Source: Escherichia coli (GTDB lineage Bacteria; Pseudomonadota; Gammaproteobacteria; Enterobacterales; Enterobacteriaceae). Taken from it: DNA of 6,346 nt. Positions within the stretch are counted from its first letter, which is position 1; each line of letters opens with the position of its first letter. This document shows, one piece after another, positions 1,322-6,346 of this stretch. The notes beneath the pieces are model-generated. The model did not search any database and was not told the DNA's origin. It was given only the letters and a program-made list of their open reading frames with translations. The stretch is taken from NCBI RefSeq assembly GCF_036507355.1, contig NZ_AP027881.1. One strand, given 5' to 3'. The position numbers and the translations under genes were made by a program.

Positions 1322-1425
1322 AAAGAAAAAACCGCCCTGCAAGGCGGTTTTTCGAAGGTTCTCTGAGCTACCAACTCTTTGAACCGAGGTAACTGGCTTG
1401 GAGGAGCACAGTCACCAAAACTTGT
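1322..1425 (-). ncRNA. RNA I antisense copy-number control RNA, replicon 1
   Basis: Complement of the RNA II 5' region. 5' end placed by alignment to pMB1 RNA I (ACAGTATTTGG vs ACAAGTTTTGG here); 3' end is the hairpin ACCGCCTTGCAGGGCGGT plus U-run. Ends approximate to about 5 nt. Confidence 0.7.
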
Positions 1426-2944: not shown

Positions 2945-3271
2945 ATGTTTGGGTTTTTTAAGAAAAAAAAGCTCTATGAAGAGATCTGTAAAGATGCAGG
3001 GATGGCTTTATCTGATGGGTTATTGGCCCAAGGCTTAGCGAGAAACAAAATAGAAGCAATGGGGGCTGGTGCTGTTTTTAGTCAGTCTTTGAGGGAGGCT
3101 GTTTCTCAAGGTTACAAGTCTTCTGATGCGATTGCTGAAGCAAGAAAAAACACATCTCATCATCTAGCTGCTAGAGGGTTTGATTTTGAAACGATCGCAA
3201 GTGCGATTGATGTTTTTTGTACTGCTACAGCATTTGAATCAATGTTAGATCTTGCTCGCGATAAAGGCTGA
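2945..3271 (+). CDS. Hypothetical cytoplasmic protein, 108 aa, low GC
   Basis: ORF with good SD (GAGG 6 nt upstream of ATG); no signal peptide; lysine-rich N-terminus (MFGFFKKKK). Bracketed by Xer sites 2 and 3. No family recognised. Confidence 0.6.
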   Translation: MFGFFKKKKLYEEICKDAGMALSDGLLAQGLARNKIEAMGAGAVFSQSLREAVSQGYKSSDAIAEARKNTSHHLAARGFDFETIASAIDVFCTATAFESMLDLARDKG

Positions 3272-3333: not shown

Positions 3334-3361
3334 GGTGTATGCAGGAGATGTTATGGTAAAT
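3334..3361 (+). other. XerC/XerD-type recombination core, site 3 (GGTGTATGCAG-GAGATG-TTATGGTAAAT)
   Basis: XerD arm identical to sites 1 and 2; XerC arm and central region diverged; direct orientation. Confidence 0.7.
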
Positions 3362-3428
3362 ATGTCTTATTGAGAATATTCTTACTAATGCGCGGTTTTT
3401 TTCTAATTTTTAAATGGATGACTTAAAA

Positions 3429-3806
3429 ATGAAGGCAAGATTTTTTGCAGCCTTGCTTATTACTTTTTTTCTTTCTGGATGTGCGACAGAGGCGGGATAT
3501 CAAAGGGTATTAAATTCATGGATGGGATCTACTGATGTGAGCTTGATTCAGTCATGGGGGCCGCCTCAGCAATCTTATGAACTTTCTGGCCATACCTTCC
3601 TAGTTTATTCAAATAGCTCTAGCTCTTATATACCTGGAGTGGCTCCTACCTATCAGACTACGTTTATTGGTAATACAGCGTATACAAACACCTATGGCGG
3701 CTCGCCCGGCTTTAATGTTAGCTACTCATGTACTACGACTTTTGAGGTTGTTGGCGGGAAAATTGTTAACTGGCGTTATCAGGGCAACAATTGCACATCG
3801 CGTTAG
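3429..3806 (+). CDS. Lipoprotein of unknown function, 125 aa, low GC
   Basis: Signal peptide MKARFFAALLITFFLSGC (lipobox LSGC). Start at 3429 preferred over the track start at 3414 because it begins the signal peptide. Mature part is Ser/Thr/Tyr/Gly-rich with two Cys near the C-terminus. No family recognised. Confidence 0.65.
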   Translation: MKARFFAALLITFFLSGCATEAGYQRVLNSWMGSTDVSLIQSWGPPQQSYELSGHTFLVYSNSSSSYIPGVAPTYQTTFIGNTAYTNTYGGSPGFNVSYSCTTTFEVVGGKIVNWRYQGNNCTSR

Positions 3807-3973
3807 TCGTGTGTCCAATCGTAGTATCAGGTGAAGATACAATAGAGAACTTAATACCCTCTTGGTGGGTATATAAAAACCAAGATGAGCGTAGCGACCT
3901 TCTTTAAACTCGTTCCTTGTGTGTCTTACCCTGCAAAAGGTTTGATTGTGTGGGTGTAAATGAAATCGTTGCG

Positions 3974-4003: not shown

Positions 4004-4011
4004 CTAAAACG

Positions 4012-4112
4012 AAAAAACCGCCCTGCAAGGCGGTTTTTTCGAAGGTTCTCTGAGCTACCAACTCTTTGAACCGAGGTAACTGGCTTGGAGGAGCGCAGTC
4101 ACCAAAACTGTT
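4012..4112 (-). ncRNA. RNA I antisense copy-number control RNA, replicon 2
   Basis: Same reasoning as replicon 1 RNA I; terminator hairpin ACCGCCTTGCAGGGCGGT plus U-run at the 3' end. Ends approximate. Confidence 0.7.
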
Positions 4113-4693: not shown

Positions 4694-4885
4694 ATGAACA
4701 AACAACAAAAGACAGCCGTTAACATGGCTAAATTCATCCAGGATCAGTCCCTGCTTCTTCTGGACAGGCTTAATGAGCTGGATCTGGATCATGAGGCTGA
4801 TTTCTGCGAGAAACTCCATGAGGATGCGGAACGCCTTTACCGAAGCCTGTCAGCGCGCCTGAATGAGCAGCAGGACGGTGCGTAA
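4694..4885 (+). CDS. rop: Rop/Rom (RNA one modulator) homolog, 63 aa
   Basis: Same length as pMB1 Rop, with clear similarity along the whole protein as recalled (MTKQEKTALNMARFIRSQTLTLLEKLNELDADEQADICESLHDHADELYRSCLARF vs MNKQQKTAVNMAKFIQDQSLLLLDRLNELDLDHEADFCEKLHEDAERLYRSLSARL here). Confidence 0.85.
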   Translation: MNKQQKTAVNMAKFIQDQSLLLLDRLNELDLDHEADFCEKLHEDAERLYRSLSARLNEQQDGA

Positions 4886-4898
4886 TGTCTCCGTTCTG

Positions 4899-4918
4899 GG
4901 TATTACCGGAGTAATACC
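4899..4918. repeat. Perfect hairpin/palindrome GGTATTAC-cgga-GTAATACC downstream of rop
   Basis: 8-bp perfect stem with 4-nt loop. A second palindrome with the same half-site, TATTACC-cc-GGTAATA, lies at 4957-4972. Confidence 0.6.
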
Positions 4919-5188
4919 GGCATCGCCTTAATTTTCATTGTCTTAGCGCTTAACATTATTACCCCGGTAATACCCACAATCCCTGTATTTTTTCTTTTTT
5001 ATTTATTTTTCATGAAGTTGCGATGAAAATCGCAGCTGCGTTAGGTGTATGACCATTTTGAGGTTGAAAAATAATCAACCATGGCGGGTGATTTACGCAG
5101 GTTAAGGGGAGATCGTGACAAAAAAAAGCGTTCCTCACTGTATCGTTCATGCCTGCATGAACGGGTTATTCTTCCTGACTACAGAATT

Positions 5189-5340
5189 ACATCGCTCCTT
5201 CAGTTCATACATCACTTTTACAACACTTTTACAACACTCCTTCGGCCTGTACATCACTTTTACAACACTTTTGCATCACTTTTACATCATTTATACATCA
5301 CTTTTACATCATTCCTTCAGCTCATACGTCACTTTCATCC
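5189..5340. repeat. Tract of roughly 11-bp tandem repeats (core ACAxCACTTTT), iteron-like
   Basis: Repeated units ACATCACTTTT / ACAACACTTTT / GCATCACTTTT / ACATCATTT across about 150 bp, bracketed by direct repeats CCTTCAGTTCATACATCACTTT (5197-5218) and CCTTCAGCTCATACGTCACTTT (5314-5335). The ORFs the track predicts here are repeat-translation artefacts. Confidence 0.7.
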
Positions 5341-5526
5341 TCTGTGCCATTTGTACATCACCCCCTTCCTGAACGTGCTGACAGCGGGTTTTCCGGCTGC
5401 GCCGGCAACGCTTCACGGCCACGCAATAAATTGCGTCCCCGTTCACCGTTTTCGGATGGGAAGAACGCCGGAAACAGGACTTCCCCTGGCTGAATGGTGT
5501 GAATTTCCGCGCTATGCACTTGCGCG

Positions 5527-6346
5527 GGCACTGTTGCAAAGTTAGCGATGAGGCAGCCTTTTGTCTTATTCAAAGGCCTTACATTTCAAAAACTCTGCTT
5601 ACCAGGCGCATTTCGCCCAGGGGATCACCATAATAAAATGCTGAGGCCTGGCCTTTGCGTAGTGCACGCATCACCTCAATACCTTTGATGGTGGCGTAAG
5701 CCGTCTTCATGGATTTAAATCCCAGCGTGGCGCCGATTATCCGTTTCAGTTTGCCATGATCGCATTCAATCACGTTGTTCCGGTACTTAATCTGTCGGTG
5801 TTCAACGTCAGACGGGCACCGGCCTTCGCGTTTGAGCAGAGCAAGCGCGCGACCATAGGCGGGCGCTTTATCCGTGTTGATGAATCGCGGGATCTGCCAC
5901 TTCTTCACGTTGTTGAGGATTTTACCCAGAAACCGGTATGCAGCTTTGCTGTTACGACGGGAGGAGAGATAAAAATCGACAGTGCGGCCCCGGCTGTCGA
6001 CGGCCCGGTACAGATACGCCCAGCGGCCATTGACCTTCACGTAGGTTTCATCCATGTGCCACGGGCAAAGATCGGAAGGGTTACGCCAGTACCAGCGCAG
6101 CCGTTTTTCCATTTCAGGCGCATAACGCTGAACCCAGCGGTAAATCGTGGAGTGATCGACATTCACTCCGCGTTCAGCCAGCATCTCCTGCAGCTCACGG
6201 TAACTGATGCCGTATTTGCAGTACCAGCGTACGGCCCACAGAATGATGTCACGCTGAAAATGCCGGCCTTTGAATGGGTTCATGTGCAGCTCCATCAGCA
6301 AAAGGGGATGATAAGTTTATCACCACCGACTATTTGCAACAGTGCC
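5527..6346 (-). mobile_element. IS26 (IS6 family), complete 820-bp copy
   Basis: 14-bp terminal inverted repeats GGCACTGTTGCAAA at 5527-5540 and its reverse complement at 6333-6346; length 820 bp; encodes the canonical Tnp26 sequence. The element ends at the last base of the window. Confidence 0.95.
5579..6283 (-). CDS. tnp26: IS26 transposase Tnp26, 234 aa
   Basis: Translation MNPFKGRHFQRDIILWAVRWYCKYGISYRELQEMLAERG...GEMRLVSRVFEM matches IS26 transposase as recalled. The track ORF carries a 6-codon upstream extension (MLMELH) that is probably not translated. Confidence 0.95.
   Translation of the reverse strand: MNPFKGRHFQRDIILWAVRWYCKYGISYRELQEMLAERGVNVDHSTIYRWVQRYAPEMEKRLRWYWRNPSDLCPWHMDETYVKVNGRWAYLYRAVDSRGRTVDFYLSSRRNSKAAYRFLGKILNNVKKWQIPRFINTDKAPAYGRALALLKREGRCPSDVEHRQIKYRNNVIECDHGKLKRIIGATLGFKSMKTAYATIKGIEVMRALRKGQASAFYYGDPLGEMRLVSRVFEM

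Follow-up and report, generated by a model that had tools for sequence, protein, structure and literature searches.

We analyzed a 6,346-nt stretch of Escherichia coli DNA (contig NZ_AP027881.1, assembly GCF_036507355.1; hereafter the window), in which an initial annotation had pointed out two palindromic, operator-like sites directly downstream of the rop gene. These palindromes are probably the four boxes of an orphan origin of transfer (oriT) of the IncN type (pKM101/R46, MOBF), located on a ColE1-type plasmid that lacks a relaxase. We also consider it likely that the boxes are binding sites for TraK, a putative ribbon-helix-helix (RHH) accessory protein of the TrwA family. In the window, this oriT-bearing plasmid is fused to other DNA by IS26. 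On the best reading of the alignments, the orphan oriT would span approximately positions 4899–5361.

The coordinates and complementarity of the two palindromes were reproduced from the sequence and with a repeat finder. Palindrome 1 (P1) consists of the 8-nt arms GGTATTAC (4899–4906) and GTAATACC (4911–4918) around the 4-nt spacer cgga, palindrome 2 (P2) of the 7-nt arms TATTACC (4957–4963) and GGTAATA (4966–4972) around the 2-nt spacer cc, and in both the arms are 100% complementary. The reported separation of about 40 bp and the AT-rich tract thereafter correspond to a gap of 38 nt and a T-rich tract at approximately 4986–5013. The palindromes are inverted copies of each other, forming a longer inverted repeat (4894–4916 against 4957–4979; 23 nt, 91% complementary). 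Exact matches to TAWTACC number 10 on both strands of the window against 0.91 expected, which none of 200 shuffled sequences reached, and six of the ten fall within 4899–4974. We confirm that the palindromes and boxes are a real feature that exceeds chance.

GGTAWTACC equals its own reverse complement except at the central base, and the region thus also reads as four 9-mers starting at 4899, 4910, 4955, and 4966, all on the plus strand. Box 1 (GGTATTACC, 4899–4907; core TATTACC, 4901–4907) is the left arm of palindrome 1 and box 2 (AGTAATACC, 4910–4918; core TAATACC, 4912–4918) its right arm, while box 3 (ATTATTACC, 4955–4963; core TATTACC, 4957–4963) and box 4 (GGTAATACC, 4966–4974; core TAATACC, 4968–4974) form the left and right arms of palindrome 2. 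The four direct TAWTACC cores thus start at 4901, 4912, 4957, and 4968 in the same orientation, with a spacing of 11/45/11 bp, and the boxes are placed 74–150 nt upstream of a predicted nick at 5048^5049. The 36-nt spacer between the pairs (4919–4954, plus strand) contains ATTTTCAT at 4931–4938, which is kept in the ColE1-type copies and sits 13 nt past box 2 both in the window and in a qnrB19 plasmid (L007); the rest of the spacer diverges between lineages. This ATTTTCAT is exactly complementary to ATGAAAAT at 5023–5030, which spans the loop of the relaxase hairpin described below; both elements are kept in the ColE1-type lineages including L007, and R46 lacks this conservation. Further TAWTACC-like matches at 1184–1192, 1220–1228, and 3850–3858 (ATTAATACC, AGTATTACT, and CTTAATACC) lie 100–150 bp upstream of each RNAI gene; they do not show the 11-bp spacing and probably occur by chance in AT-rich DNA.

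Box offsets were compared between plasmids by anchoring each sequence on GGTGTAT. TAWTAC motifs at offsets of −143, −132, −87, and −76 are present in the window, in four rop-linked variants (L001, L008, L012, and L013), in L007, in p9123 and in the IncN plasmid R46 (L021), where the boxes are at 788, 799, 844, and 855 against an anchor at 931 and the second box reads TAATAA. The offset of box 1 is also the same in L005 and in pJHCMW1, the full set of the latter being −143, −132, −88, and −76. A second IncN type (L019/L020) has boxes at −132, −87, and −76 together with an imperfect first box, TATTAA. From box 1 to box 4, the central bases are T, A, T, A for the window and the opposite alternation (A, T, A, T) for L007 and pJHCMW1; R46 has T, A, A, T and L019 has T, A, A, A.

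In an ungapped alignment anchored on the nic region, the boxes stand out as islands of identity amid diverged sequence. Among 11 sequences across the lineages, 12 of the 26 columns of the box cores are invariant, compared to 6 of the 80 other columns in 4886–4991 (Fisher p = 3e-5). Among 13 sequences of the window-type lineage, variable positions amount to 2/36 inside the boxes and 16/70 outside (p = 0.03). A collection of species-representative genomes was furthermore scanned with a pattern of hairpin and nic region that excluded the boxes, and all eight loci returned carry the four boxes. Contigs bearing the oriT were also seen in assemblies of Corynebacterium, Flammeovirga, Sphingomonas, and a Bacillota metagenome-assembled genome (L024, L028, L029, and L030); these contigs are short, with a very low coverage, where given, of 0.48x and 1.7x, and probably reflect contamination of the four assemblies by small Col plasmids.

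The initial annotation had alternatively proposed that the palindromes form a terminator or attenuator for rop. As an RNA structure, they would terminate the rop transcript or stabilize its 3′ end and insulate against RNAII/rop read-through, as a main or a second function. Palindrome 1 begins 14 nt past the rop stop codon, and in a transcript of 4886–5012 the two palindromes pair into one long hairpin (P1:P2) with a folding energy of −29.1 kcal/mol (z = −5.3), which none of 200 shuffled sequences equaled; a U-rich run follows it. The hairpin of palindrome 1 by itself reaches −9.3 kcal/mol in the window and −10.3 kcal/mol in L007, and in plasmids of the L007 type it is directly followed by UUUUAUUUCUUU, approximately 25 nt past the upstream open reading frame (ORF). 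In addition, the substitution C4963T in variant L010 makes the long inverted repeat perfect (23/23), and transcription through oriT was reported to affect the relaxase reactions of R388 (PMC3264647). However, terminator scans gave no intrinsic terminator match at the palindromes (4890–5015), the stems are AT-rich, and the U-run in the window lies approximately 8 nt past the long stem and 14 nt past palindrome 2. At the paired positions 4896 and 4977 of the long repeat, the combinations C/C, C/G, and G/G occur, a variation that is not compensatory. An inversion between the arms of the long repeat was considered as an explanation for the C/C and G/G combinations and rejected, as the loop is not inverted in those plasmids.

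Moreover, the boxes are kept where neither rop nor the hairpin exists. In R46, boxes 3 and 4 read TTTAATACC-ta-ATTATTACC, and in L019 TTTAATACC-tt-TTTAATACC, which are plain direct repeats; the equivalents of the region in these two plasmids have folding energies of 0 to −4 kcal/mol, which do not surpass those of shuffled sequences (z near zero). We therefore regard an RNA-based function of the palindromes as unlikely, and the proposal of a terminator as their main role falls, since the boxes occur without rop, other rop lineages occur without the boxes, and no canonical terminator was detected. Any role in rop termination is secondary at most.

As judged from these comparisons, the conserved unit is the set of four direct TAWTACC boxes with a spacing of 11/45/11 rather than two palindromic operators, and the palindromy is a by-product of the GG that precedes the boxes in the ColE1-type copies. 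What is conserved family-wide in the aligned sequences is the direct box and its position, not secondary structure, which would indicate recognition of double-stranded DNA by a protein. The suggestion that the sites bind a dimeric protein therefore holds in part: position and sequence are conserved across diverged plasmids, next to traK or trwA in the conjugative relatives, as expected for sites of an oligomeric protein, but the unit is not a pair of palindromic operators, and palindromy is absent from box pair 3–4 in IncN plasmids.

The rop gene (4694–4885, plus strand; Rop/Rom, 63 aa; Pfam PF01815, E = 2.1e-29) is the upstream neighbor of the boxes and not part of the oriT; the equivalent ORF of homologous plasmids is annotated as a Rop family protein. 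RNAI is located at 4009–4110 on the minus strand, so that RNAII, the replication origin and rop are all read from left to right. The palindromes are by no means absent from related plasmids: a 116-bp module around them was counted at at least 90% identity in 192 plasmid records, essentially always directly after this rop allele. Its hosts are mostly tiny ColE1-type plasmids of Klebsiella and E. coli, two of which (2.0–2.1 kb) encode just Rop and a small membrane protein. The adjoining sequence 4992–5130 is found in 800 records, and occurs also without the module in p9123, the 8.4-kb plasmids of Shigella sonnei, qnrB19 plasmids and pJHCMW1. Boxes without rop are present in R46, the second IncN type (L019), the qnrB19 plasmids (L007), p9123 and pJHCMW1. 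In other rop lineages (approximately 77% identical), the next gene encodes a helix-turn-helix (HTH) protein and overlaps rop, and the palindromes are lacking. The palindromes are therefore tied to the block downstream of them rather than to rop as such. In Klebsiella, the commoner of the rop lineages (L016 892–1135, L017 822–1244) has rop overlapping the start of the HTH gene, with which it apparently forms an operon, and lacks an oriT-like block.

The downstream block resembles the oriT of IncN plasmids throughout. A BLAST comparison aligned 4968–5109 at approximately 72% identity with the traK-stbA intergenic region, the seat of the IncN oriT, and this was the decisive lead to reading the block as a probable IncN-type oriT. 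The nic region GCTGCGTTAGGTGT^AT (5033–5050, plus strand; predicted nick 5048^5049) is identical to pKM101 oriT57 in 16 of 16 bases. In the nicking experiments on pKM101 TraI, the pre-nic 35-mer oligonucleotide ends in GCTGCGTTAGGTGT (last bases GCGTTAGGTGT) and the post-nic 22-mer begins with ATAGCAGGTTAAGG (ATAGC) (PMC9868005 Table S1). The inverted repeat AGTTGCGAT-gaaa-ATCGCAGCT (repeat I16; 5016–5037, plus strand), the relaxase recognition hairpin 5′ of nic, has 9-nt arms (5016–5024 and 5029–5037; 89% complementary), ends 11 nt before nic and aligns with the hairpins of pKM101 (in the pre-nic 35-mer), R46 and L019. Between the boxes and the hairpin, the T-rich tract (4986–5013, plus strand) is found in the same place in R46, L019, L007, and pJHCMW1, which makes it an oriT feature rather than the tail of a rop terminator.

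Several elements are also shared on the 3′ side of nic. The conserved element CGCAGGTTAAGGGG (5096–5109, plus strand) is an island of conservation in the otherwise diverged variants of orphan-oriT ("pOriT") plasmids and is likewise present in R46 and L019; elements resembling AGGTTAAGG are found at 5060–5067 and 5096–5109 in the window and twice 3′ of nic in R46 (L021 940–950 and 988–998). A second inverted repeat, CGTTCATGC-ct-GCATGAACG (repeat I10; 5144–5163, plus strand), lies on the leading side of nic and is shared by the pOriT and IncN plasmids; its arms stay paired by changing in step, to GGTCATGC/GCATGACC in the variants L008, L012, L013, and L003 and to GTATTCATGC/GCATGAATAC in R46. 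A direct-repeat array with a periodicity of 11 bp and the consensus TACATCACTTT follows (5188–5361, plus strand, core 5208–5312; Tandem Repeats Finder period 11, 9.6 copies), with outlying repeats at 5188, 5325, and 5354. Its about ten repeats take the forms TACATCACTTT, TACAACACTTT, and TGCATCACTTT. The array corresponds to the TACATCA repeats that occupy the same place upstream of stbA in R46 and to the stbDRs of R388 (TTGCATCAT, two sets of five with 2-bp spacing), which bind StbA (PMC3098194). No stbA gene is present beside the array in the window, and the array may be a partition or transfer-control site that is used in trans.

Alignment thus extends the IncN homology to the boxes, the T-tract, the hairpin, nic, AGGTTAAGG, the second inverted repeat and the 11-bp repeats, in the same order. 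The nic sequence, the hairpin, the collinearity of approximately 4899–5361 with the traK-stbA oriT of IncN plasmids and the conservation of the boxes are established at the level of sequence. In agreement with the remark that no gene for an obvious cognate regulator lies in the window, its ORFs include no relaxase or accessory gene (traK/traJ/traI) and no stbABC. Because of the lack of cognate genes in cis, we consider the region an orphan oriT and not a conjugative module. Breakpoints between plasmid variants near the nick (in the window at approximately 5059) fall within identical sequence after nic, consistent with oriT-specific recombination. Such recombination has been described for these plasmids and for TraI/TraK (PMC10454011 citing Tran 2012); Paterson reportedly described it in 1999.

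Other types of transfer or resolution site were considered for the region and rejected. The octamer GGTTAAGG at 5100–5107 (minus strand) resembles the ColE1 bom/MOB-HEN nic (CTGG^CTTAAC) only partly, and a ColE1-type nic was dropped because AGGTTAAGG is repeated in the R46 oriT and the pKM101 oligonucleotides locate nic on the plus strand, at GGTGT^AT. An oriT of the F type, an idea from the pSe-Kan/pKPN2 literature, was likewise considered; the region is not known to show convincing similarity to the F oriT, against which no alignment was run. With respect to a cer-like Xer site, exact XerD half-sites TTATGGTAAAT occur at 956, 2899, and 3351, whereas at the palindromes there is only a match with two mismatches (4948–4958), and the cer-like site of the small plasmids is located elsewhere than the palindromes.

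The position of the boxes points to TraK as the candidate binding protein. In R46 they are flanked by nic on one side and the start of traK (L021 725, minus strand) on the other, and in L019 by nic and the gene annotated as traK. A corresponding layout is found in the IncW plasmid R388, where GTAGTG occurs at 330, 341, and 386 and inverted at 397, again with a spacing of 11/45/11. These boxes lie between nic and trwA, and their offsets from the nic TTGTCT^ATAGC (475^476), −146, −135, −90, and −79, are within 2 nt of those in the window (−148, −137, −92, and −81 from the nick). The TraK of R46 shares 59% identity with that of L019, and both are associated with TAWTAC; its identity to TrwA, associated with GTAGTG, is 31%. 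The N-terminal strand reads PIIT[AC]KV in both TraKs, compared to PIQVRL in TrwA. Protein and box sequence thus appear to change together. The R388 oriT contains two TrwA and two integration host factor (IHF) binding sites (PMC3264647), and TrwA, an RHH protein that forms tetramers, enhances nicking by TrwC and represses trwABC (PMC3264647; PMC4175270). The TraI proteins of pCU1 and pKM101 show little specificity in DNA binding, and it was proposed that specificity is conferred by TraK (PMC2943615). We assign the boxes to TraK on the basis of their position, the concerted change of box and protein, the analogy to TrwA in the literature and an RHH-type spacing, and we consider the assignment likely. 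In RHH operators of the Arc/Mnt/CopG type, subsites are approximately one helical turn apart and dimers of dimers bind cooperatively. TraK itself is reported to be a probable tetramer (Li and Christie, 2020). The PDB contains no TraK relative.

The boxes could instead be bound by another protein, such as a host nucleoid protein (IHF, Fis, or other), the C-terminal part of TraI, or StbA. The two IHF sites of the R388 oriT are interleaved with the TrwA sites, and the box region is AT-rich. We nevertheless judge this highly improbable: IncN and IncW plasmids carry TAWTAC and GTAGTG, respectively, in the same hosts, which argues for a plasmid-specific binder; repeats of the StbA type differ in motif and are located across nic from the boxes; the targets of the relaxase domain are the hairpin and nic; and tandem subsites at 11 bp fit the general architecture of RHH operators.

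Several points weigh against an IncN-type oriT with TraK boxes. The concerted change of protein and box is seen in three protein/box pairs only, and TraK and TrwA give sub-threshold scores for the Pfam RHH (NikA-like) families. In the accessible literature we found no TraK-binding experiment or footprint for these boxes. The equation of the GTAGTG boxes of R388 with the TrwA sites sbaA/sbaB is a putative one, made by position. The strong palindromes in the ColE1-type copies exceed what the boxes alone would require. The one tested relative, the pJHCMW1 oriT, was mobilized with pRK2073, described as RK2 machinery, and not with an IncN helper. Finally, MOB-suite typed 163 of the 192 module-bearing plasmids as non-mobilizable. 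With regard to such typing, the L007-type version of the oriT is typed as mobilizable, and the pKM101 nic 57-mer has matches in 804 'mobilizable' records; typing based on oriT seems to miss the rop-linked variant.

If the region is an IncN-type oriT, nicking at 5048^5049 and mobilization of the plasmid by an IncN helper are predicted. A co-resident IncN plasmid would supply TraK, TraI, the coupling protein and the mating pore in trans. Each pair of boxes (1–2 and 3–4), being 11 bp apart and hence on the same face of the helix, would bind two TraK dimers (a tetramer), and the bound pairs, together with the AT-rich DNA between them and at 4986–5013, would bend or open the region and shape the relaxosome. 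The TraI of the helper would then bind the hairpin at 5016–5037 and cut the plus strand after T5048. Transfer of this strand in the 5′ to 3′ direction would be led by the 11-bp repeat array, with ori, rop and the boxes entering last. An oriT that functions in this way would make these small plasmids hitchers on IncN conjugative plasmids, which bears on the spread of small resistance Col plasmids in Klebsiella and E. coli.

The excess palindromy invites a further idea, to which we attach little probability, namely that the ColE1-type hitchers sharpened the TraK boxes to the near-perfectly self-complementary GGTAWTACC for their own ends, titration of TraK and transcriptional insulation. If so, dozens of plasmid copies with four optimal boxes each would titrate the TraK autorepressor, thereby derepress traKJI of the helper and raise the transfer of both plasmids, and the 23-bp long-range hairpin or cruciform would double as an insulator that shields the oriT from RNAII/rop read-through. 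A plasmid that looks non-mobilizable would then manipulate its helper through decoy operator sites.

Alternatively, the palindromes could be hairpins for priming on single-stranded DNA (primosome/ssi sites similar to pas-BH of pBR322) or the remnant of a miniature inverted-repeat element. In pBR322, rop is immediately followed by a factor Y site rich in hairpins, and the minus strand of 4919–4932, TAAGGCGATGCCGG, matches TAAGCGGATGCCGG of pBR322 in 12 of 14 positions; the 23-nt inverted repeat flanks 40 nt. However, a 12/14 match is close to chance for regions of such size (estimated p ~ 0.06), the matching segment is not kept in the L007-type or IncN homologues, and the hairpin potential is lost in IncN. 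With respect to a mobile element, the module occurs essentially always beside rop (192 records), and neither a target-site duplication nor other copies were found. Both variants of this explanation are most improbable.

Rfam identified only two RNAI genes in the window (1323–1423 and 4009–4110, minus strand), from which it follows that its 6.3 kb hold two complete ColE1-type replicons of the same orientation. Among plasmid records, the best covers 53% of the window and none reaches 80%; small Col plasmids have here been joined into a mosaic or cointegrate. The XerD half-sites (956–966, 2899–2909, and 3351–3361), cores of cer-like sites, bracket small gene modules with a lipoprotein-like ORF (974–1267), a 108-aa ORF (2945–3271) and a 130-aa lipoprotein (3414–3806), which look like Xer-site-bounded modules. 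A complete 820-bp IS26 (5527–6346; inverted repeat GGCACTGTTGCAAA at 5527–5540; transposase ORF 5579–6301, minus strand) ends exactly at the end of the window and interrupts the small-plasmid backbone approximately 165 bp past the last outlying repeat of the 11-bp array (5354–5361).

An orphan oriT on a ColE1-type plasmid is a known arrangement, for which "pOriT plasmid" is the current term (PMC12282955), and the oriT of pJHCMW1 and the qnrB19 plasmids was already reported in the literature. These relatives (pJHCMW1, pPAB19/qnrB19, and p9123/pCERC1) have the same oriT block downstream of ori with the same box offsets. They differ from the window in having a 49-aa ORF instead of rop upstream and flipped central bases in the boxes, and their module around the boxes is too diverged for BLAST, which aligns from 4992 onward only. 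What may be new is the map of four putative TraK boxes with a layout shared with R388, the mostly non-mobilizable typing despite a nic identical to that of pKM101, and the sharpening of the boxes into palindromes. The unannotated stretch from rop to the repeat array, present in approximately 190 small enterobacterial plasmids, would thereby become one end of a complete IncN-type transfer origin.

Compared to the operators of RHH proteins (Arc, Mnt, CopG, TraY, and NikA), the putative TraK boxes are likewise short, partly symmetric subsites at approximately one helical turn; they differ in that two pairs lie 45 bp apart and the plasmid has no gene to regulate. R388 shares with the window the four boxes at 11/45/11, approximately 80–146 nt 5′ of nic and between nic and the accessory gene, as well as a hairpin (IR2) with nic and 11-bp-periodic repeats before stbA, and its TrwA is homologous to TraK. 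It differs in the box (GTAGTG, with box 4 inverted), the nic core (TTGTCT^ATAGC) and the repeat motif (TTGCATCAT). The closest correspondence is to the IncN plasmids R46, pKM101, and pCU1 (MOBF TraI, TraK, and a stbABC leading region), with the same 16-nt nic, 5′ hairpin and four TAWTAC box offsets, and with the T-rich tract, AGGTTAAGG, the second inverted repeat and the leading-side 11-bp repeats, the whole region being collinear. In contrast to these plasmids, the window has no traK/traJ/traI or stbABC in cis, is flanked by a ColE1-type ori and rop, and is approximately 72% identical overall outside the conserved islands; its boxes are extended to GGTAWTACC and thus form two 20-bp palindromes and a 23-nt long-range repeat, which are absent in IncN. 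The comparison at the same time maps predicted TraK sites in pKM101/R46 themselves, as TAWTAC at −148, −137, −92, and −81 from the nick.

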